Source: an uncultured Planctomycetaceae bacterium (lineage in GTDB: Bacteria > Planctomycetota > Phycisphaerae > SM23-33). From it: 59,215 nucleotides of DNA. Position 1 is the stretch's first letter; every line of letters starts with the position of its first letter. Shown here in pieces: positions 21,640 through 48,215 of this stretch. Both the position numbers and the translations under genes were made by a program. The stretch lies in assembly GCA_964449175.1 (NCBI GenBank), contig CAYUYH010000001.1, positions 1 to 59,215 on the forward strand. The letters run 5' to 3'. The notes beneath the pieces are model-generated. The model had not been told where the DNA came from, did not search any database, and worked only from the letters and a program-made list of their open reading frames with translations.

Positions 21640-22788
21640 ATGATCGCTGCAAACGTAAGAACTCTCGCCGCCAGGATGACGGGCGGGCAACGGCACGTCT
21701 GGGAGTTGCTGCGCCGTTTCGGCCCGCAGGTGGCCAGGCTGGCGCCTCGCGGCCGGTTCGACGGCGTCAGGGGACACCTGTGGGAGCAGATCGCCCTCCC
21801 CTCGCAGGTGCGAGGCAGGCTGCTGTGGAGTCCGGCCAACACCGGGCCCCTGGCCGTCCGCAGGCAGGTGCTCACCGTGCACGACCTGGCCGCCCTGGAC
21901 CACCCCGAGTGGTTCACGGCGAAGTTCGCCGGGTGGTACCGCCGGCTCATGCCTCCGCTGGCCAGGAGGGTCTCTCACATCATCGCCGTCTCGGAGTTCA
22001 CCAAGCGGCGGCTCGTGGAGACCACGGGCGTCGAGGCGGAGAAGGTCTCGGTCGTGCCCAACGGCGTCGACGGCGACTTCAGGCCCAGATCACTGGACCA
22101 GGTTCGGGCCACGCGACGGGCCCTGGGGATTCCCCCCGGCCGATACCTGCTGTCGGTCGGCTCGCAGGAGCCTCGCAAGAACATCGCCCGGCTGCTGCGG
22201 GCGTGGGAGCTCGTGCAGGACTCCCTGGACGATGGTCTGTGGCTGGTTGTCGCCGGCGGGCCGGGCACGAGGCTTGCGTTCCGCGAGGCCTCCTTCACAT
22301 CCGTCCCGTCGCGCGTGCATCTGACCGGATACGTGTCGGACGGGCAGCTGCCGGCCTTGTACAGCGGGGCGATGGCCATCGCGTTCCCGTCGATGTATGA
22401 AGGCTTCGGCCTGCCGGTGCTGGAGGCGATGGCATGCGGCACGCCGGCGATCGTCGCCGACAACACCGCCCTGCCCGAGACCACCGGCGACGCAGCCGTC
22501 ATGGTGGACCCGCTCAGCGTGGACTCCATCGCCGAGGGCGTCGGCAGGATCGCGGCCGACGACACTTTGCGCGACGAACTGGCGCGCCGGAGCCTGGCGC
22601 GGGCGAGGCAGTTCACCTGGGATCGCGCCGCGGACGCGACCTGGGCGCTGCTCGAGCGCGTCGACAGCCAGACGGAGTGGATGGCGCACTCCAGGACGAG
22701 AACGCCGCGGACGTGCCACGCAGTCGCAGCCGATCGGTCCAATCGGCAGCTCGCTCGCGCCGCCGCGGAAAGGAGAGCGGGGCATTGA
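21640..22788 (+). CDS. Glycosyltransferase family 4 (mannosyltransferase-like)
   Basis: VHDLAALDHPEWF and EGFGLPVLEAMACGTPAIVADNTALPETTGDAAVMVDP. Confidence 0.8.
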   Translation: MIAANVRTLAARMTGGQRHVWELLRRFGPQVARLAPRGRFDGVRGHLWEQIALPSQVRGRLLWSPANTGPLAVRRQVLTVHDLAALDHPEWFTAKFAGWYRRLMPPLARRVSHIIAVSEFTKRRLVETTGVEAEKVSVVPNGVDGDFRPRSLDQVRATRRALGIPPGRYLLSVGSQEPRKNIARLLRAWELVQDSLDDGLWLVVAGGPGTRLAFREASFTSVPSRVHLTGYVSDGQLPALYSGAMAIAFPSMYEGFGLPVLEAMACGTPAIVADNTALPETTGDAAVMVDPLSVDSIAEGVGRIAADDTLRDELARRSLARARQFTWDRAADATWALLERVDSQTEWMAHSRTRTPRTCHAVAADRSNRQLARAAAERRAGH

Positions 22789-23594
22789 GGTCGCTGCTGC
22801 TATTCCTCCAGCGACTGTGCACGCACCGGGGCATCATATGGTCGATGGCCCGCAGGGAGATCCAGCTCCGCTATGCCGGCACGATCGCGGGGCTGATCTG
22901 GTCGGTCATCCACCCGCTGATGCTCATATTGACGTACTGGCTGGTGTTCTCCAAGGGGCTGAAGATCAGGCCGGCGGCGGACGTGCCGTTCATCGCGTTC
23001 TTCCTGTCGGGCCTGATTCCCTGGACGGCCTTCGCCGAGACCACCTCAGCCAGCACCAACGCCATCACCTCCAGCCCGCACCTGGTCAAGCGGATACTGT
23101 TCCCCACCGAAATCCTCCCGGTGGTCCACTTCACGGCCAGCCTGGTCAATCACGCCGTCATGCTGGTGGTGCTTGTCGTCGTGCTGATCTTCTACGGCAT
23201 GTGGCCGTCGCTGTACGCCCTCCAGTTCCTGTACTTCGCCGCCGGGCTATCGGTGTTCTGCGTGGGGCTGGGGTGGATCGTCTCGGCGCTGAACGTGTTC
23301 TATCGCGACGTCGGACAGATCATCCTGGTCGTGCTGAACATGTGGTTCTGGCTGACGCCGATAGTCTGGCCGCCGGAGAACATGCAGTCGTTCAACCCCA
23401 CGGTCGCGTTCTGCCTGAAGCTCAACCCGATGTACTACGTCGTGCAGGGGTACCGGGCGAGCTTCATCTACCGGACGGGCCTGTGGGAACACTGGCGGCT
23501 GGGGGCGTATTTCTGGGCCGTGAGCCTGGCCGTGTTCGCGCTGGGCGGCGTGCTGTTCCGCAAACTTAAGCCCGATTTCCCGGACGTGTTATGA
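22785..23594 (+). CDS. wzm: ABC-2 type polysaccharide export permease (Wzm)
   Basis: 269 aa with 6 TM segments. N-terminal ...REIQLRYAGTIAGLIWSVIHPL motif. TTG start overlaps the upstream stop (TTGA), with AGGAG 9 nt upstream. Confidence 0.8.
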   Translation: MRSLLLFLQRLCTHRGIIWSMARREIQLRYAGTIAGLIWSVIHPLMLILTYWLVFSKGLKIRPAADVPFIAFFLSGLIPWTAFAETTSASTNAITSSPHLVKRILFPTEILPVVHFTASLVNHAVMLVVLVVVLIFYGMWPSLYALQFLYFAAGLSVFCVGLGWIVSALNVFYRDVGQIILVVLNMWFWLTPIVWPPENMQSFNPTVAFCLKLNPMYYVVQGYRASFIYRTGLWEHWRLGAYFWAVSLAVFALGGVLFRKLKPDFPDVL

Positions 23595-23804: not shown

Positions 23805-25502
23805 ATGAGTGATTCGCACGTGACGGACGACTCTCGGCTGCCGCACCAACCTCAGCAGAAAGGTCGCACTATGCGTCTCGGCCGCGTGGCGGTTGTGCCG
23901 GTAATGGCGCTCATCGTGATGGCTGCGTTCCTGCCGGTTGTCCAGGGAAACTATGTCTATCACGACGACTACTATGACTTCTCCGTGGGCAAATCCGTGG
24001 AGACGCATCCGCAGTACAAGGCATACACCGAGAACTATGGCCGACCTCTGGGGATTCGCATCAAGTACTGGTACGCCCGGTCCATGGAGATAGCCCGCGA
24101 TGCCAACTTGGCCCGCGGCGTCACCCTCTGCGCGATCGCCCTGCTGGGGCTGATGCTCTACGGCAGCGTTCGGCCTTACGTCGCCGGCATGGCGGAGGGG
24201 TTGCTCCTGGTGGCGATGGTCATCACCCTGCCGCCGTTCCAGACCCCCGCGGCCATGCTCGCCAACGCCACGCACATATACGCGGCGCTACTGGGTGGCC
24301 TGGCCGGGCTGGTCATGCTCGGCGTGCTCAGGGATCGCCTGTGGATACTCTGGCGGATACTGGGGGCGATTGCCGCCGCCGTGATGATGTACTACGGCCT
24401 GCAGATATACCAGCCGGCCGTGTTCTTCTACCTGCCGGTGGTGTGTTTCTTCCTGCTCTATAGGGAGTTCAACACTCTGCGGTCGCTCATCTGGCGGTTC
24501 GCTCTGGCCGTCGCGCCGCTTCTGGTCGCCTCGGCTGCGTACTTCGTCTACCTCCAGACGCTGCCCACCGAGCGCGCCAAGCCCGCCGGGGACATCGTCG
24601 GAAAACTCGCGTGGTTCTGGCAGACCGTGCTTCCGACCGTGTTCTCCTTCTGGTCGCTCCACACGACAAGGCTGTGGATGAAGGTCTTCGGCGTATTGCT
24701 GGCGGTGCTGGCGGCGTTGCGGATCATCTCCGTGTGGCGGGCATTGCGGCGCAAGGAGGTTGACCAAGCGAGCGCAGGTAGAGTACTGCTGATCGATCTC
24801 GTGAGGGTTGTCGGCATCGCCGCGCTTGGCATCCTGAGCTACCTGCCCAACCTGGCTGCCCACGAGCAAGCCCTCTACTATCGCACCCTTATTGCCGTTC
24901 AGCCGTTCGCGTTGCTGGTGTTCTACGCCGCAGCCAGGGCCGTGATTCGCCGCATCGGGGCCTTGCTGGGCCCTGCCGATCACGGCATCTTCGCCAGGGG
25001 CCTAAACTTCACAGCCACCGCTGTGCTACTGCTGGCGGCGTGCCTGGCAGCGGGCATTGGCGTCTTCACCGCTCACTACAATATCATGAACTACTACGTC
25101 GTCCCACAGACGATCGAGCTGGGTTACCTCAGGCAGCAGTTCTCGCAGCTCGACCCGACCCGTCGTCACCACGTCCACATCGTCAGGCCGAAGATCCCTT
25201 ATCTAGTCTGGCGGAATTGGGAGGATGAATACGGGGTGCCCAGCACACTGTTCCCACAGGATATTGGACACATAGTTGCTGCCCTCAACAGGGAATTCAG
25301 CATGTCCCTGCCCATAGACACAGTGACAAATGGGCCAAGCGCGACGGAGTGCGACTTCTCTCCTGAGAATCCTTCCGTCAGGACGAGCCTTCCGGTTCCC
25401 AAGGACGCCGTGATTATCGATATGAACGGGATAGGGCTGCTATTGGATCCGGTCCAGGCACCACGCTGGAAGAAGCGTAATGTTACGGTCCATTTCGAAT
25501 AA
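23805..25502 (+). CDS. Polytopic membrane protein, possible GT-C glycosyltransferase
   Basis: At least 10 hydrophobic segments. First loop NYVYHDDYYDF (acidic/aromatic). Soluble C-terminal roughly 150 aa. Start is uncertain (23748/23805/23871). Confidence 0.35.
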   Translation: MSDSHVTDDSRLPHQPQQKGRTMRLGRVAVVPVMALIVMAAFLPVVQGNYVYHDDYYDFSVGKSVETHPQYKAYTENYGRPLGIRIKYWYARSMEIARDANLARGVTLCAIALLGLMLYGSVRPYVAGMAEGLLLVAMVITLPPFQTPAAMLANATHIYAALLGGLAGLVMLGVLRDRLWILWRILGAIAAAVMMYYGLQIYQPAVFFYLPVVCFFLLYREFNTLRSLIWRFALAVAPLLVASAAYFVYLQTLPTERAKPAGDIVGKLAWFWQTVLPTVFSFWSLHTTRLWMKVFGVLLAVLAALRIISVWRALRRKEVDQASAGRVLLIDLVRVVGIAALGILSYLPNLAAHEQALYYRTLIAVQPFALLVFYAAARAVIRRIGALLGPADHGIFARGLNFTATAVLLLAACLAAGIGVFTAHYNIMNYYVVPQTIELGYLRQQFSQLDPTRRHHVHIVRPKIPYLVWRNWEDEYGVPSTLFPQDIGHIVAALNREFSMSLPIDTVTNGPSATECDFSPENPSVRTSLPVPKDAVIIDMNGIGLLLDPVQAPRWKKRNVTVHFE

Positions 25503-26283
25503 GGAGAGCGAGCTGCTGAGCCCCTTCCCGCACGTCATCCGCGACGGCGTGGAGGTTTCATTCATCTACAACTACTACCGCAAGGAAAGCACGATATTCC
25601 AGTCGCTGGAGAGCATCCAGAACCAGTCGCCCTCCATGTGCGGCCGGGACCAGATCGAGATCATCGTGGTCGACGACGGCACGGAGATCGAGCACGTCCG
25701 CGACGTCCGCGAGATGCTCCCCCCCGAGGTCATCTACCTCTGGCAGCGGAAGTGCAAGTACGGCATCTGCCGCGCGAAGAACACCGGCGCGAAGATGGCC
25801 AACGGGCGGGTCCTGGTGTTCATCGACCCGGACATCGTGATCTGCGAGGACTTCACCGACGCCCTGCTGCGGGCGGTCCACTGCTACGGCGAGCGCGTGC
25901 TGCAATCGTCCTACATCGAGGGCTACTACTTCGAGGGCAGCCCCGACCCGCGCGCCGAGTTCGGCGTCTGGGAAATACCGAACCGCGTCACCAGCCGGTT
26001 CAGCCAACTGGCCTCCACCTGCTTCGGCATCTCGCGGAGGCTGTTCATGGAGTCCGGCGGCTTCGACGAGGACATCATCCACGGCGGCGTGGAGGACCTC
26101 GCCTTCGGCTATCACGTCGGCACGCTGCCGGAGACGGGCATCGTCTTCAACACGGAGATGCAGGTCAAGCACATCCCACATCCGCCCGGGACGGCCCACG
26201 CCGACCCGCAGGCCAGCTGGCAGGTCGTCAAGCTGAAGTGCCCTGAGTTCTACGATCAGTACATCGCCAGAGGGCTGAGATGA
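25480..26283 (+). CDS. Glycosyltransferase family 2 (GT-A)
   Basis: VSFIYNYYRKESTIFQSLESIQNQS...IIVVDDGT...FIDPDI (DxD-type). Confidence 0.75.
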   Translation: MLRSISNKESELLSPFPHVIRDGVEVSFIYNYYRKESTIFQSLESIQNQSPSMCGRDQIEIIVVDDGTEIEHVRDVREMLPPEVIYLWQRKCKYGICRAKNTGAKMANGRVLVFIDPDIVICEDFTDALLRAVHCYGERVLQSSYIEGYYFEGSPDPRAEFGVWEIPNRVTSRFSQLASTCFGISRRLFMESGGFDEDIIHGGVEDLAFGYHVGTLPETGIVFNTEMQVKHIPHPPGTAHADPQASWQVVKLKCPEFYDQYIARGLR

Positions 26284-27725
26284 GCGACAGCTTCAAGAAG
26301 GTCTCGGTTATGATCCCCTCCAGGGGGCGAATCGCCTACCTGGAGCAGATGCTGGAGTCGTTCGACAAGACCGTCGGCGACAAGGATCAGGCCGAGATCG
26401 TCTTCCGCGCCGACCAGGACGACCCGGAGACGATTCAATTCCTGTGCAACACGCCCTACAAGACGATCGTCGGCCCGCGCGAGCAGGGGTACAAGTCGCT
26501 GCCCGGCTTCTACAACGACATGGTCAAGATCGCCACCGGCGACCTGCTGATGTGCTGCAACGACGACGCCGTGTTCGTGACGCCGAACTGGCCTCGGAAG
26601 CTCATCGACATCGCCAACAAGTATCCCGACGGCATCTTCAACATCGGAGTGCAGGTAAGCGTCAACGACCAGTTCTTCCCCTTCAGCATCGTCTCGCGGA
26701 AGCTGGTCGACATCCTGGGCATCATCAACGACACGCGCCTGCTGTTCTCAGACCTGTTCCTGCTCGACATCGCAAACTACTTCGACCGGGCCATACGCGC
26801 CCCGGAGGTCGTGATCACGCACTATTGGGCTGGCAGCGTGCCGGACCAGACGCGGATCGACGCGAACAAGCACGAGTTCGACATGGTCTTCAAGGACACG
26901 ACCGGCGCCTGGACGGACGAGTATCAGGCCAAGCACAACAAGGTCGTGGCCGAGGCCGTCATGAAGATCCGCCGGTCCGGCGACATCATGCCCGATATCG
27001 CCATGAACACGTTGGCGGCCTGGGAACCTCCCGACGACGTGGGCGCCGACAGCATCTGGCCGCCGAAGGTGCGGTGCCGGAACTGGTACTACGCCAAGCC
27101 CCCGCACGCGATCCACTACCCGCGGATCGGCATCCGCCGGCTCATAGGGATGATGTACGAGTTCGGCCTGGATGGGGGAGAGATACTCCTGTCCTGCTTC
27201 CACAACGGGCTGCCGAACACCTTGTGGGAGGGTGTGTTCGACAAGGTCGTCTCGATCGACCACCAGAGTGAGCGCCAAGAGACCATCCGAGACGGCAAGC
27301 AGGTCATCTTCCGCGGGCCCGTCGGGAATGCTCGGCTTCTCTTCAGCGTTGCCGAGGAGCTGGCGGACCTGCGGGCGATCGTGCTCGACGACACGAAGTA
27401 TAACAACATCATCTCGACATACTTTGTGTTCAAGAAGCTCATCGCCCCGCCGGGGCTGATCGTGTTCACCAACGCCGGCAACACAAACCCAGCCCACGCC
27501 GGCGTGCATAAGTTCATCAGCGACCTGTCCCGCGGCGCGCTGGACGGCATGAGGCATGAGATCGTCATGCTGGACGCCGACGACATCGCAAGCCCGGGCC
27601 TGGCCTACGAGTTGATAGGCGACCCGGCCGAATACAGGCCGTCCCAGGCCGGCATCGAGGAGGCCGTCCTGCGGACCGTCGCATGCAAATCCGCCCGAGC
27701 CGTACCACTGGAGCACGAGGTCTGA
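26280..27725 (+). CDS. GT-A-like glycosyltransferase domain (paralog of 47502..48215) fused to an uncharacterised C-terminal alpha/beta domain
   Basis: VSVMIPSRGRIAYLEQMLESF...LLMCCNDDAVF...PDGIFNIG aligns by eye with 47502..48215. The C-terminal roughly 230 aa have no motif I recognise. Confidence 0.5.
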   Translation: MSDSFKKVSVMIPSRGRIAYLEQMLESFDKTVGDKDQAEIVFRADQDDPETIQFLCNTPYKTIVGPREQGYKSLPGFYNDMVKIATGDLLMCCNDDAVFVTPNWPRKLIDIANKYPDGIFNIGVQVSVNDQFFPFSIVSRKLVDILGIINDTRLLFSDLFLLDIANYFDRAIRAPEVVITHYWAGSVPDQTRIDANKHEFDMVFKDTTGAWTDEYQAKHNKVVAEAVMKIRRSGDIMPDIAMNTLAAWEPPDDVGADSIWPPKVRCRNWYYAKPPHAIHYPRIGIRRLIGMMYEFGLDGGEILLSCFHNGLPNTLWEGVFDKVVSIDHQSERQETIRDGKQVIFRGPVGNARLLFSVAEELADLRAIVLDDTKYNNIISTYFVFKKLIAPPGLIVFTNAGNTNPAHAGVHKFISDLSRGALDGMRHEIVMLDADDIASPGLAYELIGDPAEYRPSQAGIEEAVLRTVACKSARAVPLEHEV

Positions 27726-30700
27726 TGGAATACATAAGGAACAACGAGGGCGCCCGTCCGCTGGTCAGCATCATCCTGCTGGACTGGGGCGTCCGCGAGA
27801 GCTTCCACGCGGTCCACTACCTGAACCACCAGGCCTTCCCACGCGACAGATACGAGATCATCTGGGTCGAGTTCTACGATCACAAGCCCGAGGCGCTGGC
27901 CAGGGCGCAGCAGCGGGCAAGCGACGACCGCGACTTCCGCCTCGACAAGTGGATCATCCTCGGATACCCCGAAAGCGTCTACTATCACAAGCATCTGATG
28001 TACAACATCGGTTTCATCGCGGCAGCCGGCGAAATCTGCGCGATCTGCGACTCCGACGCCATTTATCCGCCCACCTTCATCCGTAGCCTCCACAACGCCA
28101 TGAAGATCAGCAAGGACCTGGTGGTGCACGTCGACCAGGTCCGCAGCGAGAACCGCAAGTTCTACCCGTTCAACTACCCGCGGACAGACGATATCCTCCA
28201 GGCCGAGAGCCTGGTCAACTGGACGGGCTCGACCACGACCGGGCTGGCCAACTCCGCCGACTTCGTCCACGACGTCAACTACGGCGCCTGCATGTGCGCC
28301 AGGCGGAGGGATATCATCGGCGTCGGCGGCGCCGACGAACACATCGAGTATCTGGGCTACATATGCGGGCCATACGACCTGACGTGGCGACTCGTCAATG
28401 CCGGCAAGCACGAGCAGTGGCTGACGCACGAGTTCACCTACCACACCTGGCATCCCGGACAGGCCGGGCACCGCAACTTCGGCGGCCCGCACGACGGGCG
28501 GAACGTCTCCAGCCGGGCCCTGGAGGCCAGGGACACCGGCCGAGTCATGCCATTCGTGGAGGATCCGGCCATACTCCAGCTCCGCCAAGGCACGACCAAG
28601 TCGGCCGACGAGCTGCTGGACGAGCTGATGCGGATCGACCGCAGCCAGTGGGCCAATCCCGAGCAGTTCCTCACCGTGCAGGCCCCCGTGCAACTGGTGA
28701 AGTCGAACTACCGCGGGCACAACATCGTCTTCTACAAGGATGAATACTACGGCATGCCCCATGACTGGGGCGAATTCAGCCGCCCCCGGGCCGAAGGCGG
28801 GGATTACGATGAGGTCGCCGGCGATTCGGTCGAGAAGGTCAAACGCCTGATAGACGAGCGAGTGGGCGAAGCTGAGCCGGCCGAAGCCGGCGTGTACGCC
28901 AGCGCCTCGCAGCATGACCATGGCGCCGCCGACTGCGACGAGATGCCGAAGGAGCCAACCCCGCCACTTGCGCAGGCCGAGGTAGAAACGCAGGTTCTCC
29001 AGCCGGTGGCACAGCTGCTATCGAGTGAACAGGCCTTCGCCGACGCCGACGGCGAGATTCCAGACCCGGCCAAGATCGCGCCGATCCTCGTCCGCGAGGG
29101 CTGCCGCGGCCTGAACATTGTCCGTCACGACGGCGAGTACTACGCCGTCAGCCAGGACGGCGGCGCGTTCGACCCGGACAGGCTGACCGCAGGCCGATAC
29201 GGCATATGCTACTGGGGCGCCTCCGAGCAGGAGGTCGTCGCCAAGGCCACGCGCGAGCCGGCCACGAGGGTCGGCCAGTGGGCGCTGCGGCCCGTACGCG
29301 GCGGGATAGCACGCAGAATCGCACGCAAGCTGCTCGACCCGCGAGGCTCGCGACGCCTGTTGCGAGAGCTCGGCCGACAGCAGGCGGTGGACACGATGCG
29401 GCAGAAGCGCTCCGTCCACCTCAGCCAACAGTTGCTGCGCGAGCGGCAGCGCCTGCACGCCCAGCTCGCCGCCAACGAGGCTCAGCGCGCCCACCTTGCG
29501 GCCGAACAGCAACGCCTGGCGACCGAGCGAGCCGCGCTCGCTAACAGGCAGGGCGAGTTCGACGCCCAACTGGCCGACCTGGCCGACAAGCACGCCCGCC
29601 TGGAGGCCCTGTCGGCCTCGGCCACGCGGACAGAGGCGGTGGATCGCCTCCGCAAGGAGCTGGCCGGCCAGGCGATGGCCGTCACGAGGGTCCGCCAGGA
29701 GGCCACCGCCCAGAAGGACCAGCTCCGCCAGGCCCTCGAGCGAATCGAGGATCAGGACCAGGCGCTGCGTCGCAGCCATCAGGAGGCCAAGGAACGCAAC
29801 GAAGTGCTGCGTCGAGCACTCAGCACGCTCAGGGAGCACGAGCAGGCGCAGAGGCGCAGCCGGCTGGAGATGGAATCCCAGGAGCAGCTCCAGCGACAGA
29901 CCGCCGACGAGCTGGCCGCCCAGGAGCAGACCCTCAAGGCCGTCCGAGAGGCCCTCTCCGCCCAGCAGCAGTCGCTCGACGAAGGCCGACGGCAGGCCGA
30001 ACAACACACCGAGGCACTGCGCCTGGCAGGTCAGGCCCGCCAGCAACAGGAGCAATTGCTCCAGGCCGCCCGCGCGGACCTGGACCAGCAGATCCAGGCA
30101 GTCACGGAGACCCGCGGCGATGTCCAGGCCCAGCGACAGCTCATCGATGAGAGCCGCCAGCAGGTCCAGCAGCACGCCGAGGACCTCCGCGTGGCGACCG
30201 AGGCCCAGCGGCAACAGGAGCAGTTGCTCCAGGCCGCCAGGGCGGACCTCGACCAGCAGACGCAGGCCATTGCGGAGACCCGCGGCCAGGTGCAGGCCCA
30301 GCGGCAGTTGATCGATGAGACGCGCCAGAACCAGGAGTACGCGCTGCGCCTGACGTCCCAGACCCAACAGGAGCACGGGCGCCTGCTCGAGGCGGTCCGT
30401 CAGGAGATCGCCCAGCAGAGGCAAGCCCTCGAGCAGACGCGCGCGGAGGTCGAGCGGCAGAGGGAATCAGTGGAGACCTTCTACCGGATGGTCGCCGAGG
30501 TGGCGTTCCACAGGGTCGCCGCCGATCTAAAGGCGCCGATCGGCGAGGGCGCCGCGGGCATCCCCCTGGGCCATCCAGAGCTGCCGGAAGAGCCGCCACC
30601 GCCGGCGGCGCCGGAACCGGCCGACGCCGCCCCGCCGCCACCGCCTGCCAAGCCGCCGCCCCCCGCCCCACAGGTCGCGCCGGAGCTGGCTTGCACGGCC

Positions 30701-31855
30701 GAGCAGAGAGAGGCGATCGACGCCCGCCTCGGACCCGACGCGCCTTGCGACCAGCCGCGCCTGCCGGACGCCGAGCTGTACGAGCTGGTCAAGACCATCG
30801 ACTTCTCCCAGGGGCTGCCCCTGGAGAACACGTTCCTCTACTACTGCGGCCGAAAGGCGCCCGCCGGCGGCAGGATAGTCGACCTCGGCACCGGGCACGG
30901 CGGGTCGGCCTATGTGTTCGCCCGCGCAGTGCAAGGCCGCGACGTGCGTATCGTCAGCGTCGACCATCGCAGCGACTCTCAGGCCGTCGAGCGGCTCAAG
31001 AACACGCCCGTCGAGCTGGTCGAGGCCGATTCGGTGGCCTACGCCAAGAAGTGGCGCCGGCGCAAGGACAGCCGGATCGACCTGCTGTTCATCGACAGCG
31101 GGCACGCCCTGGCCGACGTGTTCAGGGACTATCGCGCGTGGATCGGCTTCGTCGAGCCGCGCGGCGTCGTGGTCTTCCACGACCACGACGTGGCCTCCGA
31201 CGGCGGCACGAACCACTTCGGCGTCCGCGTGTTCATAGACGCGCTGCGCCAGAGGGAGTGCCTGTCGGACCTCTATCACAGCCAGCGGTGCTGCCTGGGC
31301 GTCAAGCCGCCCGGAGAATTGCGGGAGGTGACCCTGGACGACTGCAAGGCGGCGCTCAAGAGGATCGCGGCGAACATCTGCAACATCCTCGACGGCAAGG
31401 CCACGGTCATCAAGGCCTGGCCGAACACGGCCTCGCGGCTGGTCCAGGTCCTCTCGCCGCGGATGCCGGCGCGCATCTGCACGCCGCCGGATAGCGCCGA
31501 GCCGCTCGTGATCGTCGGCAGCGACCAGGGCCTGGATGCCGCCGTCGCCGCCGGACAGGCGCCGCCGATCGACGCCCGGGCGGACAAGCTCACCCTGCTG
31601 TACGTGCTGGACGAGCTGATACGGACCTCCGATGAGCGGACCGTGATGACGATCTCCGCCAACCGCAACGCGATGCTGCACTGGCGAGAGGGCATCTCGA
31701 TGCTCGCCCAGGCGACAAACGCCGGCGGATTCCCCCGTCAGCTGGACGCGATAGACGCAACGAAAAACATCGAGGAGCTGTCACGCTACGTAGCCCTCGA
31801 GCAGACCCGGCTGCTCATGCTGATGGAGCTGGAGCAGCCCGCGACGTACCTGTAG
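27725..31855 (+). CDS. 1376-aa multidomain protein: GT-A-like domain, two small 'GxNIV' modules, a roughly 380-aa coiled coil, a Pro-rich linker, a class I SAM methyltransferase and a C-terminal domain
   Basis: The ATG overlaps the previous stop (TGATG). The N-terminus is paralogous to 48203..49771. There is no Pro between about nt 29354 and 30493. PELPEEPPPPAAPEPADAAPPPPPAKPPPPAP linker. MTase motifs RIVDLGTGHGGSA and DLLFIDSGH. Confidence 0.8.
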   Translation: MEYIRNNEGARPLVSIILLDWGVRESFHAVHYLNHQAFPRDRYEIIWVEFYDHKPEALARAQQRASDDRDFRLDKWIILGYPESVYYHKHLMYNIGFIAAAGEICAICDSDAIYPPTFIRSLHNAMKISKDLVVHVDQVRSENRKFYPFNYPRTDDILQAESLVNWTGSTTTGLANSADFVHDVNYGACMCARRRDIIGVGGADEHIEYLGYICGPYDLTWRLVNAGKHEQWLTHEFTYHTWHPGQAGHRNFGGPHDGRNVSSRALEARDTGRVMPFVEDPAILQLRQGTTKSADELLDELMRIDRSQWANPEQFLTVQAPVQLVKSNYRGHNIVFYKDEYYGMPHDWGEFSRPRAEGGDYDEVAGDSVEKVKRLIDERVGEAEPAEAGVYASASQHDHGAADCDEMPKEPTPPLAQAEVETQVLQPVAQLLSSEQAFADADGEIPDPAKIAPILVREGCRGLNIVRHDGEYYAVSQDGGAFDPDRLTAGRYGICYWGASEQEVVAKATREPATRVGQWALRPVRGGIARRIARKLLDPRGSRRLLRELGRQQAVDTMRQKRSVHLSQQLLRERQRLHAQLAANEAQRAHLAAEQQRLATERAALANRQGEFDAQLADLADKHARLEALSASATRTEAVDRLRKELAGQAMAVTRVRQEATAQKDQLRQALERIEDQDQALRRSHQEAKERNEVLRRALSTLREHEQAQRRSRLEMESQEQLQRQTADELAAQEQTLKAVREALSAQQQSLDEGRRQAEQHTEALRLAGQARQQQEQLLQAARADLDQQIQAVTETRGDVQAQRQLIDESRQQVQQHAEDLRVATEAQRQQEQLLQAARADLDQQTQAIAETRGQVQAQRQLIDETRQNQEYALRLTSQTQQEHGRLLEAVRQEIAQQRQALEQTRAEVERQRESVETFYRMVAEVAFHRVAADLKAPIGEGAAGIPLGHPELPEEPPPPAAPEPADAAPPPPPAKPPPPAPQVAPELACTAEQREAIDARLGPDAPCDQPRLPDAELYELVKTIDFSQGLPLENTFLYYCGRKAPAGGRIVDLGTGHGGSAYVFARAVQGRDVRIVSVDHRSDSQAVERLKNTPVELVEADSVAYAKKWRRRKDSRIDLLFIDSGHALADVFRDYRAWIGFVEPRGVVVFHDHDVASDGGTNHFGVRVFIDALRQRECLSDLYHSQRCCLGVKPPGELREVTLDDCKAALKRIAANICNILDGKATVIKAWPNTASRLVQVLSPRMPARICTPPDSAEPLVIVGSDQGLDAAVAAGQAPPIDARADKLTLLYVLDELIRTSDERTVMTISANRNAMLHWREGISMLAQATNAGGFPRQLDAIDATKNIEELSRYVALEQTRLLMLMELEQPATYL
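29987..30322 (+). repeat. Tandem 168-nt (56-aa) repeat inside the coiled-coil region. Two near-identical units are flanked by diverged units
   Basis: Unit 1 is RRQAEQHTEALRLAGQARQQQEQLLQAARADLDQQIQAVTETRGDVQAQRQLIDES. Unit 2 is RQQVQQHAEDLRVATEAQRQQEQLLQAARADLDQQTQAIAETRGQVQAQRQLIDET. The DNA cores 30044..30160 and 30212..30328 are roughly 80-85 % identical by eye. Confidence 0.8.
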
Positions 31856-31896
31856 CGGCGGACCGCGCCGCTGGGCCGCACGTGGGAGGTGAACCG

Positions 31897-32808
31897 ATGC
31901 GTCAGTTGAGTGCCAAGGAAACTTCAGAGCTGGAGTTCTGGATCGACCACGTCCACGGCGGCGGCTGCGAGAGGGAGTCGGGCCGGCCCTTCCTCGAGCA
32001 GTGGCGCGACGGGGCGAGGGGCAGGCTGAAGTTCTACTTCGAGAACATCCACGACGCCATCGCCCGGGACGGCGCCACGTGGGTGGACGTGGGCTGCGGG
32101 CCGTTCTCCGTCCTGATGGAGGCGCCCGCCGGCATCACCAAGATAATGGTCGACCCGCTGATGAAGTTCTACCTCCACCACAAGCTTGTGCCGCCCGTCG
32201 AGGACACCTCGCGGCACGTCTTCATCGAGGCCGCCGGCGAGGACCTGCCGCTGGCCGACGAGACGGCCGAGATGGTCTTCTGCACGAACACGCTCGATCA
32301 CGTCGCCGATCCGTGGCAGACGCTGTCGGAGCTGGTGCGAATCCTGAAGGTCGGGGGGCACCTGATCATCGACACGGACACCGAGGGCCAGACCGACGAG
32401 ATGCACCCGCATGCCCTGAAGGTCGCCGAGGTGGAGAAGTGCCTGGCCGAGATCGGCGCGCCCAGGACGTTCAGCCACTTCCCCAAAGGGGTCAAGCGTC
32501 GCCCGGGCGCGGTGCTGTACTTCGGCTTCTTCAAGAAGACCGCGCGCCGGCCCGAGCATGCGGAAGCAGTCCCGGCCGGTGCGTCTCATCCGTCGCTGGT
32601 GGCCGAGGGAGTGGACGGGTTCAACATCATCAAGCTGTCCGACTCGCGCCAAGGGGACAGGTACTACGCCATACTGCAGGGCGACGGGGCGTTCTCCTAC
32701 GAGAAGGTCGTCAACTCCGAGTACACTGTCGTGCTGGACGGCAAGAGCGTCGGCCAGGTCAAGCGGGCCATCGGGCGCTACTCCCGCAGCCGACAGCCGA
32801 GCGCCTAG
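31897..32808 (+). CDS. Class I SAM-dependent methyltransferase with a C-terminal 'GFNII' module
   Basis: VDVGCGPFS motif I and LVRILKVGGHLII. GGAGGTGA upstream of the ATG at 31897. C-terminal GVDGFNIIKLSDSRQGDRYYAILQGDGAF. Confidence 0.75.
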   Translation: MRQLSAKETSELEFWIDHVHGGGCERESGRPFLEQWRDGARGRLKFYFENIHDAIARDGATWVDVGCGPFSVLMEAPAGITKIMVDPLMKFYLHHKLVPPVEDTSRHVFIEAAGEDLPLADETAEMVFCTNTLDHVADPWQTLSELVRILKVGGHLIIDTDTEGQTDEMHPHALKVAEVEKCLAEIGAPRTFSHFPKGVKRRPGAVLYFGFFKKTARRPEHAEAVPAGASHPSLVAEGVDGFNIIKLSDSRQGDRYYAILQGDGAFSYEKVVNSEYTVVLDGKSVGQVKRAIGRYSRSRQPSA

Positions 32809-35559: not shown

Positions 35560-35566
35560 GCCTGCC

Positions 35567-36355
35567 TTACCTCTGCTGCCAGCCGCTATAGGGGTGGCTC
35601 TCCTCGTGGAAGAAGAAGTCCTCCCACGCCTGGTACAGTTGCAGCTCCAGCGGGTCGCCGAAGGAGATGAACTTCTCCACGGGGAATATGCGGACGTTCT
35701 TGCCGCGGGCGATCACCTCGTTGATGCTCGTGCCCACGTAGAACTCGTTGTTCACGCGGACGTTCTTGTCGATCATCGCCCGGGCGCCGTCGATGAAGTC
35801 GCCAGACCTGCGATAGTAGAACGTGCCCACGACGGCTGGGTCGTACTCGGGCCTGTCGGAGATGATCCGCTTCTCCACCACCTCGGTGACCCTGTCGCCG
35901 TCGGTGCGGCAGAACGCGAAGGCCGCGGGATCCTTCATGCAGACCGACCCCATCTGGAACGTGAAGATCACCACGTCGACTGTCTTGTCCGCGGCGAGCA
36001 GGTCCCAGGCCGCGTGGTCGTAGATGATCTGGTAGTCGATGCTCGAGATCAGCAGCTCCTCCTCGCTGCGGATGTGCTTCTCAGCCAGCAGGCACGTGCA
36101 GGCCTGTCCGTCGGTCACTTCGGGCACGGAGACGATGGCGGAGTTGCGGAAGTACTTCCGCGTCTCCTCGGCGAAGGGGTAGCGCTGGAGGAACTGCTCC
36201 AGGCAGATGAACACGAATCGGTCCGCCGGCGGGAACGAGCTGATCGCCGCCACAAACATCGGCTGTCCCATAATCGGGATGAACGGCTTTGGCAGGCGAT
36301 AGCCGGCCTGGCTGAACCGTCTGCCCCCGCCGGCCATGGGAATCAGACTAAGCAT
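35567..36355 (-). CDS. Sugar/polyol-phosphate nucleotidyltransferase-like protein (GT-A/NTP-transferase fold), copy A
   Basis: LIPMAGGGRRFSQAGYRLPKPFIPIMGQPM (G-x-G-x-R...PKP signature). Tandem paralog of 36348..37136. Confidence 0.55.
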   Translation of the reverse strand: MLSLIPMAGGGRRFSQAGYRLPKPFIPIMGQPMFVAAISSFPPADRFVFICLEQFLQRYPFAEETRKYFRNSAIVSVPEVTDGQACTCLLAEKHIRSEEELLISSIDYQIIYDHAAWDLLAADKTVDVVIFTFQMGSVCMKDPAAFAFCRTDGDRVTEVVEKRIISDRPEYDPAVVGTFYYRRSGDFIDGARAMIDKNVRVNNEFYVGTSINEVIARGKNVRIFPVEKFISFGDPLELQLYQAWEDFFFHEESHPYSGWQQR

Positions 36356-37136: not shown

Positions 37137-37153
37137 TGCGTCGATCCTTCAGT

Positions 37154-38754: not shown

Positions 38755-38755
38755 T

Positions 38756-39826: not shown

Positions 39827-39828
39827 CG

Positions 39829-41957: not shown

Positions 41958-43559
41958 CTAGCGGTTTCCTACCTGTTCCGTGCTGACGCCTTGATATGTC
42001 CGCCGGGCGACCGGCTCAAACGAACAGGCCAGGCCGGCGAATCCGTCGAACCGCTGCTTCTCCTGCACGACAACGTAGATCATGCCGCAGCGGATGTCAA
42101 TCGGCACGTCCTCGGCCGGTTCCTTCTCGGCGATGCCAAGGTCCAGGAAGTAGTCGCCCCAGTGGACGTCGAGCGTGACCGTCAGCTTTCCGATGACGAT
42201 CTCGCCGGCGTCGGCCGGGGCCAGCTCGACGTCGAGAAGCCGCGTGTTCATGCCGAAAACCATCACGCCGTCGACCGTCTTGACGGCCAGGCCGAACATC
42301 GGACGCTCGATCCGCTGCTTGACGCGCGCCTTGATGTAGATGTCCAGCGTGTCTCCGCTGTAGACGGCCGGCGGATCGCACCTGTCGCCGCAGGTGATCA
42401 TGCAGTCGACGATCTCCGCGCGGCGATCGCCGAATCGGTGCTCGTTCTTGTTGTATGCGCCGCGCTGGGGGCACATGTCCATCTCCGGCACGTGGCGGAC
42501 GAACTGCTCCACGGCGTCCTGGGCCCTGTCGCCGGCCCTGGCCGTCTCGTAGACGCCCGCCGTCGCGGTATCGTCCCAGGCTGCTGCCTCGGGCACGAGC
42601 TCATCGACCGCCTGTAGCACGCCCTCCTCGGACGGGGCGATCGCGCACAGGCGGTCGCTCTGGTAGCGGCTGAGGATCGAGTCCGGGATCGCGTCCAGGT
42701 CAATCGGCCCCAGTGCCCGGGCCAGCGCGAAGAAGCGCCGGCCGAACCTGATGATGTTGAACCCCTTGTAGCCCTCGATGAGGATTTCGGGGTAAGGGAC
42801 GTACCCGTCGATCTTGCCGGTGAACAGCAGCTCGTAATAGCAGTTGGCCACGTGGTTCGGCTCGCCGCGTTCGAGCACCTTGCCGTGGTCCAGGAGGATC
42901 GCGTGGCTGCAATACTTTACGATCGCGTTGGTGTCGTGGCTGACGAAGAGGATGGTCTTGCCCATCCGCTGGAATTCGAGGAACTTCTGGAAGCATTTGT
43001 GCTGGAACTTCGCGTCGCCGACGGACAGCGCCTCGTCTATCACGAGGATGTCGGCGTCGACGTGGATGGCCGCGCTGAACGCCAGGCGGACGTACATGCC
43101 GGATGAGTAGGTCTTCACTGGCTGGGATACGAAGTCCCCGATGTCGGCGAAGGCCTCGACCCGCGGCAGGCGGCGCGTTATCTCCTTTTCCGACAGGCCC
43201 TTGAGTCGGCCGTTGAAGATGACGTTCTCCCTGCCGGTCAGCTCGGGGTTGAATCCGGTCCCCAGCTCCAGCAGCGAGGAGACCGACCCGGCCACCTCCG
43301 CCGTGCCGTTCGTGGGGCGCAGAATGCCGCAGATGATCGCCAGCAGCGTGCTCTTGCCGCTGCCGTTCGGGCCGATGATGCCGACCGTGGCCCCCTTGCG
43401 AACGTCGAAGCTGACGTCCTTCAACGCCCAGAACGTGCGATGATACCTCTTGCGCAGAGGATGTATCGCCTCGAGGAGGCGGTGCCTGTGGGAGGCGAAC
43501 AGGCGGTATGCCCTGGAGACTCCGCACACGCGAATGGCTGTAGCTGTCCCGTCGGCCAT
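41958..43559 (-). CDS. wzt: Polysaccharide ABC exporter ATPase (Wzt) with an inserted 'GFNII' module and a C-terminal Wzt_C-like carbohydrate-binding domain
   Basis: Walker A GPNGSGKST, signature YSSGMYVRLAFS, Walker B ILVIDEALSVGD. The C-terminal part (HRFGDRRAEIVDCMI... onward) is beta-rich, as in Wzt_C. True start is the ATG at 43559 (MADGT...); the ORF-track extension to 43865 is rejected. Confidence 0.85.
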   Translation of the reverse strand: MADGTATAIRVCGVSRAYRLFASHRHRLLEAIHPLRKRYHRTFWALKDVSFDVRKGATVGIIGPNGSGKSTLLAIICGILRPTNGTAEVAGSVSSLLELGTGFNPELTGRENVIFNGRLKGLSEKEITRRLPRVEAFADIGDFVSQPVKTYSSGMYVRLAFSAAIHVDADILVIDEALSVGDAKFQHKCFQKFLEFQRMGKTILFVSHDTNAIVKYCSHAILLDHGKVLERGEPNHVANCYYELLFTGKIDGYVPYPEILIEGYKGFNIIRFGRRFFALARALGPIDLDAIPDSILSRYQSDRLCAIAPSEEGVLQAVDELVPEAAAWDDTATAGVYETARAGDRAQDAVEQFVRHVPEMDMCPQRGAYNKNEHRFGDRRAEIVDCMITCGDRCDPPAVYSGDTLDIYIKARVKQRIERPMFGLAVKTVDGVMVFGMNTRLLDVELAPADAGEIVIGKLTVTLDVHWGDYFLDLGIAEKEPAEDVPIDIRCGMIYVVVQEKQRFDGFAGLACSFEPVARRTYQGVSTEQVGNR

Positions 43560-43886
43560 TGTTCGCACCACGCCCCGACAGCGGAAAGCCAAACCGCAGG
43601 CGGAAAGGACTCCCTCAGTGCCGGCCTGGACCGCCATGCCGCCGATCCGGCCACGTCGCCCCATCGCGCCGCACGCGGGCGCTTCGCAGCAGCCCCCGTC
43701 GCCACCGGACCCGTGCCCCATGCACAGCGTCCCTGCTGCAAGGGCAAGGCCAGTTCCTCGTCCGAACTGGCGCTGTCTGCCCGTCGGAGTCATTTCCCAG
43801 CGAGCCAGCGAGTGCATTATATCTGGCCTGGCCAGACGATCAACGGCCAACTGGGATTCGCCCACAAAATCGTTGACAGGCGGGCG

Positions 43887-47501: not shown

Positions 47502-48215
47502 GTGTCTGAGAACACCGAGATAATCGTTCTTCTTCAGAATCGGGGCAGGGTCGACTCGGTCGCCCGGTTCCTCGACAGCGTTACCGTCACCGCCGACCGC
47601 CCGGACAGGCTGGAGGTGGTGCTGTATCTCGACGCCGACGACCAGGCCAGCCACGACGCGAATCACGACGGCCTGAGAATCGTAAAGCTCATCCGCCCGG
47701 CTGTCAGAATGGGCGAGATGCAGCGCGCCTGCTTCCACGCCAGCCGCGGGCGATACATCATGTTGATGAACGATGACGCCGTCTGCCGGACGCAGGGCTG
47801 GGACACCGCGATCCTGGCTGAGTTCGACAGATTCCCCGACGGCGTCGCCCTGGCCTGGTGCAACGATCTGTGCCTCGGGCCGAGGATGGCGAACTTCCCC
47901 TGCATTTCGCGGGGAGTCTGCGAGCTGATGGGCGAGCCGTGCCCGGCCGACTTCAGCCACGACTACGTCGACACGCACATCTTCGACACCTTCCACAAGC
48001 TGCGGGCCGCCGGACACGATCGCCTGGCGTATCTGCCGCAGGTCATCATCGAGCATCTGCACCACGAGGCCGGCAAGGCCGCGTTCGACCTCACGTACGT
48101 CAAGCCGAGACGCCAGGGGGACGAGCTGGCCTTCATCGCCTGGGACGAGCAGCGCCAGGCGCTCGCCGACGCGCTCGCCGCGCGGAGCAACGGGAAGCCG
48201 CCATGCGATTCGTAG
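47502..48215 (+). CDS. GT-A-like glycosyltransferase (short paralog of the N-terminal half of 26280..27725)
   Basis: IIVLLQNRGRVDSVARFLDSV...IMLMNDDAVCRTQGW...FPDGVALAWC aligns with 26280..27725. GTG start. Confidence 0.5.
   Translation: MSENTEIIVLLQNRGRVDSVARFLDSVTVTADRPDRLEVVLYLDADDQASHDANHDGLRIVKLIRPAVRMGEMQRACFHASRGRYIMLMNDDAVCRTQGWDTAILAEFDRFPDGVALAWCNDLCLGPRMANFPCISRGVCELMGEPCPADFSHDYVDTHIFDTFHKLRAAGHDRLAYLPQVIIEHLHHEAGKAAFDLTYVKPRRQGDELAFIAWDEQRQALADALAARSNGKPPCDS

Follow-up and report, generated by a model that had tools for sequence, protein, structure and literature searches.

The gene at 27725..31855 of the window, the 59,215-nucleotide stretch of high-GC planctomycete DNA analysed here, encodes a 1376-residue fusion protein that is a real enzyme encoded within a surface-polysaccharide gene cluster. 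With moderate probability, and by analogy with characterised systems, the protein serves as a cytoplasmic, membrane-associated scaffold and ruler-terminator of an ABC-transporter-dependent glycan pathway, making an O-antigen-like or other surface polysaccharide. Its design most likely follows the logic of WbdD, WbbB and Klebsiella pneumoniae O7 ORF6, although its N-to-C order is inverted, it draws on other enzyme families and its spacer is far longer.

The full open reading frame spans 27683..31855 on the forward strand, and translation from the ATG at 27725 yields 1376 amino acids plus a stop. This ATG is preceded by a Shine-Dalgarno-like GGAG/GAGG, shares one base with the TGA that ends the upstream GT2 gene (TGATG) and is supported by the orthologues P0242 and P0002, whose N-termini start at the equivalent Met. 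Codon-position GC of 0.72/0.44/0.88 in 27725..31855 is typical of coding sequence within the window. The reading frame, profile searches and AlphaFold upheld the 1376-residue frame and the domain map of the initial annotation. No transmembrane segment is present in the protein, the sole one in the window with a long coiled coil. Its features are:

27725..31855, + strand: whole gene, GT-A / two modules / basic helix / coiled coil / Pro linker / O-methyltransferase / C-terminal domain (ORF, GC3 0.88, orthologue starts, TGATG overlap)
27725..28654, + strand: GT-A fold glycosyltransferase domain, residues 1-310, DXD = D109-S110-D111 (AF2, Foldseek, homologue conservation)
28691..28867, + strand: small module copy 1, residues 323-381, beta-beta-beta-alpha-beta-alpha (home-made HMM i-E 2.2e-18; AF2 pLDDT about 90)
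28880..29038, + strand: acidic, Pro-containing disordered linker, residues 386-438 (AF2 pLDDT <50)
29087..29257, + strand: small module copy 2, residues 455-511, beta-beta-beta-alpha-beta-alpha (home-made HMM i-E 1.6e-16; AF2 pLDDT around 90)
29261..29380, + strand: most basic, amphipathic segment, residues 513-552, net charge +10, a candidate membrane-association helix and coil base (hydrophobic moment, conservation)
29339..30526, + strand: coiled-coil or long helical spacer, residues 539-934 (Pro-free, 3.5-residue periodicity, self-similarity, AF2 helices)
30017..30334, + strand: 8-heptad internal duplication (56 aa) with copies at 30017-30166 and 30185-30334 (76% aa, 78% nt identity)
30527..30679, + strand: Pro/Ala/Glu-rich disordered linker, residues 935-985 (composition; AF2 no helix or strand, mean pLDDT about 43-57)
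30680..31321, + strand: class I SAM-dependent sugar O-methyltransferase, residues 986-1199, GxGxG at 1055-1060 (Pfam, PDB profile, Foldseek, invariant columns)
31334..31852, + strand: C-terminal alpha/beta domain, residues 1204-1376, which always accompanies this methyltransferase subfamily (AF2 pLDDT mostly 88-97)

The N-terminal GT-A assignment, suspected from the outset, was confirmed by an AlphaFold model with pLDDT >90 over most of the domain, by Foldseek matches to the GT-A enzymes K4CP, PmHS2, SpsA and GalNAc-Ts (E 1e-10 to 1e-8; best E about 2e-10 for K4CP/PmHS2/SpsA) and by a DXD motif invariant or near-invariant across 73 homologues; the Pfam GT2 match is sub-threshold only (E 1.4e-3). 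Members of this family share 45-50% identity across phyla, are accompanied by a conserved and unusual set of sugar-precursor genes and are mostly stand-alone proteins of about 420-560 aa. A Wzt-like ATPase lies within 10 kb of 41 of the 82 loci encoding this family, and 37 of them have a Wzm, which links the family to ABC export. The domain is a candidate polymerase and may instead be a single-addition enzyme. The island also holds a paralogue (47858..49771, 47.5% identical to the fusion's GT domain) and at least five other GTs. The paralogue, which has its own GT2-like partner at 47502..48215, could be the real polymerase.

At the other end of the polypeptide, the class I methyltransferase recognised in the initial annotation matches Pfam Methyltransf_24 above cut-off (E 3.5e-16), and its profile retrieves MeT1 from the PDB at E 5.4e-16. 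Foldseek matches comprise MeT1 (E 3e-8), MycE, CalS11 and SpnK, and D1124, H1127, H1152, D1153 and D1155 are invariant among homologues. These motifs mark the domain as an O-methyltransferase of the sugar type whose SAM-binding and catalytic residues are intact. The closest solved relative, MeT1 of Mycobacterium hassiacum (PDB 6g7d/6g80; TM 0.68 on target), uses SAM to O-methylate one end of an oligosaccharide, in assays that contained Mg2+; its target is the 1-OH at the reducing end of precursors of methylmannose polysaccharide. Unlike the fusion it is a stand-alone cytoplasmic enzyme and has no coil, C-terminal domain or ABC transporter context (PMC9883506). A PDB profile search for relatives of the methyltransferase returned no WbdD chain at E <=1. 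The further residues of unknown fold noted at the C-terminus, put at about 200, are present (about 180) and have no relative in Pfam and PDB sequence searches, but AlphaFold predicts a confident alpha/beta fold for them, and this domain is conserved in stand-alone homologues of 310-370 aa. The methyltransferase and C-terminal domain normally form such a protein without a coil; as the GT family is also mostly coil-free, neither domain would need the coil for basic activity.

The gene neighbourhood comprises the following:

22434..23594, + strand: wzm, ABC-2 permease (Pfam ABC2_membrane E 1e-20; NCBIfam Wzm/RfbD-like)
25480..26283 and 26280..27725, + strand: two upstream GT2 genes, translationally coupled to the fusion gene (Pfam)
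31882..32808, + strand: Methyltransf_11 enzyme adjoining the fusion gene, with one small module at its C-terminus (Pfam; HMM)
41958..43865, - strand: wzt, ABC ATPase and Wzt_C carbohydrate-binding domain with a small module between (Pfam ABC_tran; Wzt_C E 2e-23)

Pfam and NCBIfam thus corroborated the earlier placement of wzm, a wzt bearing a carbohydrate-binding domain and further methyltransferases in one island, which also encodes an initiating phosphoglycosyl transferase and several GTs. Translation of wzt probably begins some 100 codons downstream of where the listed frame opens. The two GT2 genes occur in the same order at the P0002 locus (L001), with 55% and 51% identity. A Wzt with a carbohydrate-binding domain implies a terminal cap made by some enzyme of the cluster; the methyltransferase of the fusion is a candidate for this role, and the adjacent Methyltransf_11 enzyme could be the terminator instead.

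Between the two enzymatic ends lies the predicted coiled coil. The Pro-free stretch, given initially as about 380 aa, is the longest in the protein (residues 540-937); its hydrophobic 3.5-residue periodicity exceeds that of 1000/1000 shuffles, and the heptad pattern is pronounced along the full 390 aa of the spacer. Compared with itself, the region is most similar at offsets divisible by 7, above all at 56, in agreement with the 56-aa repeats already noticed, which both TRF and a separate repeat search missed; the sequence indicates that the spacer grew via this 8-heptad duplication. For this Q/E-rich region AlphaFold predicts three helices, 539-630, 637-766 and 782-934 (92, 130 and 153 aa; pLDDT about 75), with breaks in the monomer at 631-636 and 767-781. 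A continuous helix of 50-60 nm, as first suggested, therefore stands as an upper bound only: the coil could extend up to about 56 nm, while antiparallel packing of the three helices could bring the domain separation down to about 20 nm (about 14-23 nm or less for an intramolecular bundle), and a disordered linker follows. This Pro-linker, also identified at first reading, is predicted by AlphaFold to be disordered, holds 19 Pro in residues 951-1000 and is missing from P0242 and P0002; 50 disordered residues between coil and methyltransferase would blur a precise ruler.

Residues 513-552, at the base of the coil, have the highest cationic hydrophobic moment of the protein and are 73% identical in P0242. 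In each of the four coil-bearing relatives, the 35-aa window that is richest in basic charge (+10 to +12) falls on the GT side and never on the methyltransferase side. The segment is a candidate for membrane binding on these grounds, and its position would make the methyltransferase membrane-distal, as in known rulers.

Three collinear orthologues, fusion protein included, share 58-68% identity in the GT and 47-59% in the methyltransferase, and several other methyltransferases are encoded in the orthologous loci. The P0242 gene lies directly downstream of wzm-wzt(Wzt_C), as does that of the reversed relative P0062. The region from module 2 to the methyltransferase measures 485 aa here versus about 337 and 120 aa in two orthologues, the pattern that would be expected of a length-setting spacer; the 3.5-residue periodicity of the P0002 spacer, tested by shuffling, was not significant.

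In the proposed mechanism, the GT-A domain, the two modules and the basic amphipathic helix would sit at the membrane, where the GT-A domain, with the two co-transcribed GT2 enzymes, would help to extend an undecaprenyl-linked chain. The heptad-repeat region would oligomerise and project the MeT1-like O-methyltransferase away from the membrane, so that only chains reaching it would be O-methylated at the non-reducing end, which would halt extension and create the cap read by the Wzt carbohydrate-binding domain for export. In all characterised systems, a coiled coil carries the terminator at its distal end, and chain length is set by the length of that coil (PMC11231755, PMC5082667). WbdD of E. 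coli O9a/O8 likewise has a coiled coil that holds a methylating terminator off the membrane; coil length sets O-antigen chain length and the cap is read by the Wzt carbohydrate-binding domain. It differs in lacking a GT domain, its polymerase WbdA being recruited separately, in its N-terminal methyltransferase (plus kinase) and C-terminal membrane helix, and in a coil of about 20 nm versus up to about 56 nm here (PMC3482155, PMC5082667). As summarised in PMC11231755, WbbB (K. pneumoniae O12/Raoultella terrigena) also has a polymerase GT and a terminator at opposite coil ends and depends on ABC-transporter export, but its terminator is an N-terminal beta-Kdo glycosyltransferase rather than a methyltransferase, and its two polymerase GTs are C-terminal, a polarity opposite to the fusion's.

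The fusion matches neither of these models, as originally claimed, but two other proteins already join a methyl-type terminator to polymerase GTs (PMC11231755, PMC2943079), so the single-chain polymerase/terminator concept is known and only its N-to-C order is inverted here. K. pneumoniae O7 ORF6 is one polypeptide of a wzm/wzt cluster, with a predicted coiled coil between a methyltransferase-type terminator and GT-A/GT2 domains and with an extra small non-catalytic domain (a CBM-like Ig fold, where the fusion has beta modules). Its order is MT-kinase-CBM-CC-GT2-GT2 versus GT-modules-CC-MT-C-terminal domain; it has a kinase domain and a methyl-phosphate cap, whereas no kinase domain is detectable in the fusion, and its methyltransferase resembles CgnL rather than MeT1 (PMC11231755). 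Only one GT module is present in the fusion, whose coil is longer. WsaE of Geobacillus stearothermophilus NRS 2004/3a, from a Gram-positive S-layer glycan pathway, combines a glycan-capping O-methyltransferase with repeat-building GT domains, and its gene adjoins wzm/wzt; its order is opposite (an N-terminal MT, then two rhamnosyltransferase domains), and it is described without the long coiled coil of the fusion (PMC2943079). New here are the inverted order (GT N-terminal, MT C-terminal), the enzyme families, the coil length and a shared module of about 60 aa.

It is possible, though distinctly less probable than a ruler, that the role of the coil is confined to oligomerisation or to assembly of an enzyme complex, with the methyltransferase decorating internal repeat residues or a GT-added sugar and length set otherwise, by another methyltransferase or enzyme stoichiometry. 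The mostly coil-free relatives of both enzymes and the other methyltransferases here and in orthologous loci agree with such a scaffold, the flexible linker and helix breaks are more in keeping with a tether than with a rigid ruler, and WsaE methylation in vitro is independent of chain length (PMC2943079). However, the Wzt domain calls for a terminal cap, in every characterised system it is the coiled-coil protein that bears the terminator (PMC11231755), and about four-fold spacer variation among otherwise conserved orthologues is hard to square with mere oligomerisation. Rather doubtful is an intramolecular antiparallel three-helix bundle forming a compact terminator, in which the GT adds a capping sugar that the methyltransferase methylates while the paralogous GT and partners polymerise. 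The division into three helices, with low confidence at both breaks, fits this arrangement, the paralogue and its partner could supply the polymerase, and cross-phylum GT conservation with the sugar-precursor set suggests a conserved donor sugar, not a serotype-specific polymerase. Yet monomer AF2 routinely folds back long coiled coils, which makes the breaks weak evidence, the ends of a three-helix bundle would still lie at opposite poles, and both the strong heptad periodicity and the basic segment, which lies only on the GT side, speak against this reading. It is very improbable that the coil belongs to a cytoskeletal, motility or surface-protein-like type and was fused to the enzymes by chance: the composition-driven NCBIfam PspA and HmpF matches (E 4e-4, 1.5e-3) are weak and far below cut-offs, whereas the domains on either side of the coil are carbohydrate enzymes whose motifs are intact, the gene is translationally coupled inside a polysaccharide operon and orthologues adjoin wzm-wzt.

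The two small beta modules noted initially are both real, with larger extents than listed then (residues 323-381 and 455-511 by HMM and AlphaFold). The module, which found no match in Pfam and PDB, also ends the neighbouring Methyltransf_11 enzyme (C-terminal residues 239-301; HMM i-E 1.2e-10) and lies between the ATPase and Wzt_C in the wzt product (residues 360-425, 42591..42788; HMM i-E 7.8e-12). It is thus an undescribed module of about 60 aa, new here, common to the fusion protein, the adjacent methyltransferase and the Wzt ATPase, and an insertion of it occurs at the same Wzt site in 5 of 19 related Wzt proteins, plus that of locus L083.

The best-supported reading of the fusion protein encoded at 27725..31855 (+), by analogy with characterised systems, is that it would follow the known logic of a terminator carried on a coiled-coil ruler. 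The open reading frame extends over 27683..31855 on the forward strand, and an ATG at 27725 yields a protein of 1376 aa. This ATG overlaps the stop codon of the upstream GT2 gene by 1 base (TGATG), has GGAG/GAGG 5' of it, and matches the N-termini of both collinear orthologues, P0242 and P0002. Codon-position GC (0.72/0.44/0.88) is as in the window's real genes. The ORF, its start context, codon-position GC, AlphaFold and Pfam confirmed the 1376-aa frame and the series of domains that the initial annotation had claimed for it. An antisense ORF of 468 aa with coding-like GC3 lies opposite the coil region (29018..30424, -). It is rich in Leu, Gly, Ala and Gln because the CAG/GAG/CGC/GCC/CTG-rich codons of the coil are read backwards; it was rejected as a gene and is probably a by-product of the coil's Q/E/R/A/L codon composition.

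Domains of the 1376-aa fusion protein, by residue, with the evidence for each.
1-310: glycosyltransferase (GT) domain; AlphaFold, Foldseek, conserved DXD
323-381 (28691-28867, +): small module, copy 1; home-made HMM, AlphaFold
455-511 (29087-29257, +): small module, copy 2; home-made HMM, AlphaFold
513-552: basic segment; net charge +10, highest amphipathic basicity in the protein
~539-934: spacer or coil; proline-free over ~390 aa, periodicity, AlphaFold helices
935-985: Pro-rich linker; disordered (AlphaFold)
986-1199: class I methyltransferase (MT); Pfam, PDB profile, Foldseek
1204-1376: C-terminal domain; alpha/beta, confidently folded (AlphaFold)

The N-terminal domain is, as modelled, a GT-A Rossmann-like fold with a DXD motif. 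The Pfam GT2 profile PF00535 scores it below threshold (19.1 bits against a cut-off of 23.3), and PF00535 or PF13506 is annotated on many of its homologues. The AlphaFold model of this region, built on 73 homologues, is confident (pLDDT >90 in most 10-residue blocks), and Foldseek matched it to the GT-A enzymes K4CP (chondroitin polymerase), PmHS2 (heparosan synthase), SpsA, RmlT and GalNAc-Ts (probability 1.00, E 2e-10 to 1e-7, identity 12-17%). D109-S110-D111 and ~25 further residues are invariant, or nearly so, among the 73 homologues. The domain defines an unnamed GT-A family, with 45-55% identity among members from Planctomycetota, Nitrospirota, Nitrospinota, Omnitrophota, Desulfobacterota and some Proteobacteria; in species-representative genomes it was found at 268 loci. 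A Wzt-like ATPase is encoded within 10 kb in half of the loci examined (41/82) and Wzm in 37/82. Most members, of 420-560 aa, stand alone; in others the domain is joined to a GT4, radical-SAM/TPR, SDR, sulfotransferase-like or methyltransferase domain. Under the ruler reading, the GT of the fusion protein would act as a polymerase. A stand-alone paralogue, 47.5% identical to this GT domain, is encoded at 47858..49771 (+), with a likely start near 48203; 5' of it lies a short GT2-like gene (47502-48215, +) resembling the N-terminal half of ORF 26280..27725. This pair mirrors that of GT2b and the fusion gene, and it is kept at the P0242 locus (L083) and at many other loci.

On the C-terminal side, the class I SAM-dependent methyltransferase expected from the initial annotation was recovered by Pfam Methyltransf_24 (PF13578) at 60.4 bits, well above the cut-off of 26.3. 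Its SAM-loop and acidic/His residues are invariant: G1055 in the Gly-rich loop, D1124, H1127, D1135, W1139, H1152, D1153 and D1155. The full-length sequence gave only a marginal PDB match, to the mycobacterial sugar O-methyltransferase MeT1, so that a profile search was needed; with the MT family profile MeT1 was matched at E 5.4e-16. Foldseek likewise placed MeT1 first (TM 0.68), followed by the sugar O-methyltransferases MycE, CalS11 and SpnK and then by COMT-like enzymes. The same profile search of all PDB sequences found MeT1 and COMT-like O-methyltransferases and, at E <=1, no chain of WbdD, whose structures have been solved (PMC3482155). By analogy, methylation by the fusion protein would be terminal. 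The roughly 200 residues that follow the methyltransferase, for which no fold had been recognised, proved to be a folded alpha/beta domain with no relative in Pfam, NCBIfam or PDB. This domain always accompanies the MT subfamily of the fusion protein, and an exhaustive HMMER search showed that the two normally form a stand-alone unit of 310-370 aa.

The long proline-free Q/E/R/A/L-rich stretch between the catalytic domains, put at ~380 aa in the initial annotation, has the properties of a coiled coil. Its hydrophobic 3.5-residue periodicity exceeds that of all 1000 shuffles, its self-similarity peaks fall at multiples of seven, and AlphaFold predicts helices at residues 539-630, 637-766 and 782-934 (pLDDT ~75). 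Protein self-alignment revealed a duplication of 56 aa (eight heptads) inside it, which neither TRF nor a second repeat search reported at the DNA level. NCBIfam matches of the coil to PspA/HmpF were rejected as compositional. The coil would be expected to oligomerise. Joined end to end in a single extended, parallel coil, the three helices would span ~56 nm (375 residues x 0.1485 nm), against ~45 nm for P0242 and ~19 nm for P0002. The length of 50-60 nm first proposed is an upper bound, as the single continuous helix does not appear in the AlphaFold2 monomer, which splits the spacer into three at residues 631-636 and 767-781. Because of these two breaks the spacer may instead be a fold-back bundle, as the model would allow.

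The two ends of the coil differ, with an intact sugar-type O-methyltransferase at one and the basic amphipathic segment at the other. The protein has no transmembrane segment. In all four coil-bearing relatives compared (4/4) the most basic amphipathic segment is found on the coil's GT side; in P0062, a related protein of reversed domain order, it follows the GT as the very last part of the chain. This placement suggests a membrane-proximal GT end and a distal MT end, as far as sequence can indicate. Tails of stand-alone GT-family members are weakly informative, with a charge of at least +5 in 16/69, as against 8.6% of background windows.

Proteins of the GT family with long coils (length, source, domain order; CC, coiled coil).
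Fusion protein: 1376 aa, this window, GT-CC-MT
P0242: 1170 aa, ENA contig, GT-CC-MT
P0002: 987 aa, JGI contig, GT-CC-MT
P0062: 1038 aa, Phycisphaerae MAG, MT-modules-CC-GT (classical order)

A coil of >80 aa occurs in five proteins of the GT family, these four and one from locus L033 with a stretch of 82 aa. P0242 and P0002 are collinear with the fusion protein and share with it, respectively, 68 and 58% identity in the GT, 59 and 47% in the MT and 48 and 32% in the C-terminal domain. The region from the second small module to the methyltransferase measures ~485 aa in the fusion protein, ~337 aa in P0242 and ~120 aa in P0002, whose spacer has no significant heptad periodicity. Orthologues with spacers of ~120-485 aa constitute a natural length series in which coil length can be set against chain length. 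P0242 and P0062 are each encoded directly 3' of wzm-wzt(Wzt_C), and the gene order GT2-GT2-fusion gene is kept at the P0002 locus. The GT-coil-MT architecture is rare, since a metagenome scan with the MT profile gave no such fusion beyond a fragment of the P0242 cluster.

Genes of the fusion-gene operon and its surroundings.
20397 (+): HddA-like GHMP kinase, gene 1 of the operon
21610 (+): GT4
22434..23594 (+): wzm
23748 (+): protein of 584 aa
25480 (+): GT2
26280 (+): GT2
27725 (+): fusion gene, seventh of the operon
31882 (+): Methyltransf_11, next after the fusion gene
41958..43865 (-): wzt (NBD + Wzt_C), first gene of a convergent operon, from 43865

The wzm gene, a wzt with a carbohydrate-binding domain (CBD) and further methyltransferases, which the initial annotation had assigned to the same island, are all present; Pfam Wzt_C matches above its cut-off (E 2e-23). 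By analogy, the C-terminal domain of Wzt is a candidate reader of the terminal cap. From its GTG start, the listed wzt ORF runs for ~100 Gly/Cys/Ala-rich codons before any domain match: ABC_tran is aligned from residue 148 and NCBIfam families from ~111. Translation probably begins at Met 103 (~43559). Upstream, the island also encodes a PMT_2 (GT-C) protein, a GT4 and an initiating transferase of WcaJ type.

In WbdD, WbbB and the Klebsiella pneumoniae (Kp) O4/O7 proteins, the terminating enzyme occupies the membrane-distal end of the coil, only chains that reach it are capped, and the cap ends polymerisation; in CBD-bearing systems it also licenses export (PMC11231755, PMC5082667). The functional class used for comparison comprised WbdD, WbbB, Kp O4 ORF7 and Kp O7 ORF6. 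The fusion protein resembles this class in its wzm/wzt cluster, its Wzt CBD and an extended coil, at one end of which it has a candidate terminator domain, and to that extent the ruler/terminator reading is supported. Its polarity is not the canonical one: WbdD, WbbB and Kp O7 ORF6, the prototypes for which a membrane-proximal end has been described, begin with the terminator and have the membrane/polymerase end at the C-terminus (PMC11231755), whereas here the GT is N-terminal and the MT C-terminal. The WbdD coil measures ~20 nm (PMC5082667), against ~56 nm here if extended. The PDB profile search detected no sequence relation of the MT to E. coli O9a WbdD, and Pfam found no kinase domain in the fusion protein. 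WbbB carries an N-terminal beta-Kdo glycosyltransferase, whereas the sole GT here is GT-A/GT2-like, with no Kdo-GT. The initial annotation had held that the protein matches neither WbdD nor WbbB. It does differ from both, but closer precedents exist for uniting a methyl-type terminator and polymerase GTs in one chain, namely Kp O7 ORF6, MT-kinase-CBM-CC-GT2-GT2 (PMC11231755), and WsaE, MT-GT-GT (PMC2943079). What would be new is the inverted polarity, the other GT and MT families and the extra C-terminal domain; the unusually long, recently duplicated coil also sets the protein apart.

Under the ruler reading, the GT end would sit at the membrane, the coil would hold the MT end away from it, and coil length would measure the glycan chain. 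Caveats to this reading are that both catalytic families usually work without coils, that a floppy, lineage-specific Pro linker of ~50 residues intervenes before the MT, and that the spacer of P0002 lacks the periodicity. The island also holds a second methyltransferase, adjoining the fusion gene, and the GT paralogue at 47858..49771 with its own GT2-like partner. In view of all these points the coil may serve only as a scaffold, or the protein may be an 'add-and-methylate' terminator, with polymerisation left to the paralogue.

To our knowledge, coiled-coil rulers are the sole well-understood means of measuring polysaccharide length in ABC-transporter pathways, all those characterised come from a few enterobacterial serotypes, and it is poorly understood how finished chains pass from their site of synthesis to the transporter. 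If the inverted protein is a ruler, ruler logic is independent of chain polarity. Its candidate internal membrane-binding helix and a spacer up to 2-3 times that of WbdD are further points of note, and its GT family, with the associated unusual sugar pathway, is widespread in environmental phyla.

The two small beta-type modules noticed between the GT and the coil were verified by AlphaFold and a home-made HMM as domains of ~60 aa, each beta-beta-beta-alpha-beta-alpha, parted by an acidic disordered linker (residues 386-438). Their consensus is 'GFNIV...YYA.PQ..G.FD', also given as ..GFNIV.Y.g.fYg.PQ.lG.fD..., and has no match in Pfam, NCBIfam or PDB. The HMM found four copies in three island proteins, the two in the fusion protein and these:

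32596-32784: residues 239-301 of the Methyltransf_11 enzyme (ORF 31882..32808)
42591-42788 (-): residues 360-425 of Wzt, between NBD and CBD

The module is also inserted in the Wzt of the P0242 locus and, more widely, in 5/19 Wzt(NBD+CBD) proteins of related loci; where it is absent the Wzt linker is ~65 aa shorter. The 82 related loci hold 116 ORFs with 1-11 copies, GTs, MTases and Wzt among them, usually at the C-terminus or between catalytic domains. That the scaffold, the second methyltransferase and Wzt all carry it hints at a physical connection, open to testing, of glycan synthesis with export. It is conceivable, if rather doubtful, that the module is an undescribed docking or recruitment domain joining scaffold, accessory modifying enzymes and Wzt into one assembly-export machine; it may alternatively be a glycan-binding unit. 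Were docking its role, the inverted GT-coil-MT protein would belong to a larger group of modular machines that set glycan length in Planctomycetota, Nitrospirota, Omnitrophota and relatives. Tandem arrays of 5-11 modules stand after the GT domain in other members of the GT family (L015 9926-13222, L024 9962-13570, L009 9911-13318, P0014 and P0015), in some proteins extending to the C-terminus, and may be an alternative spacer that replaces the coiled coil. The L024 ORF (~1200 aa, seven modules) is P0028, on which Pfam annotates GT2 and GT4.

A sugar-precursor gene set (43440-53760, + and 20397-21530, +) co-occurs with the GT family in many phyla. It encodes E1_dh, a transketolase-like protein, a B12-binding radical SAM protein (~47-56% identical in ~20 loci), two epimerase/dehydratases, a DegT aminotransferase, an NTP_transferase and the HddA-like GHMP kinase. 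This conserved co-occurrence suggests that the GT family uses an unusual NDP-sugar, C-methylated, branched or amino and possibly heptose-derived. A second block (33417-41799, - and 15357-17102, +) is syntenic with an Anaerohalosphaeraceae MAG (L048) at ~50% identity, the exceptions being a 656-aa protein (28%) and the ADH at 33417, a weak paralogous match only. It encodes two Zn-ADH (polyol-phosphate dehydrogenase-like), two MobA-like nucleotidyltransferases, a ribulose-5-P 3-epimerase, a TIM-barrel isomerase-like protein, a GT2-GtrA fusion (polyprenyl-phosphate glycosyl synthase-like) and the 656-aa protein. The products of this block and the PMT_2 (GT-C) protein may jointly attach polyol-phosphate or pentose as side groups, possibly extracytoplasmically (cf. 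PMC11127046).

HemA at the end of the window is 50-58% identical to its nearest relatives, with the best named ones, from Phycisphaerae/Planctomycetota MAGs, at 50-53% and the closest match at 58%; the host thus probably belongs to a planctomycete lineage with little sampling. The left border of the glycan island is formed by flanking genes at 32-5158 (+) and 9693-15306 (-), which include a type IV pilus/T2SS set (PilB-like ATPase, PilC-like, PilN, PilO), a GH3 glycosidase and a 1094-aa protein with a weak pectate-lyase-like match and a PEP-CTERM motif.
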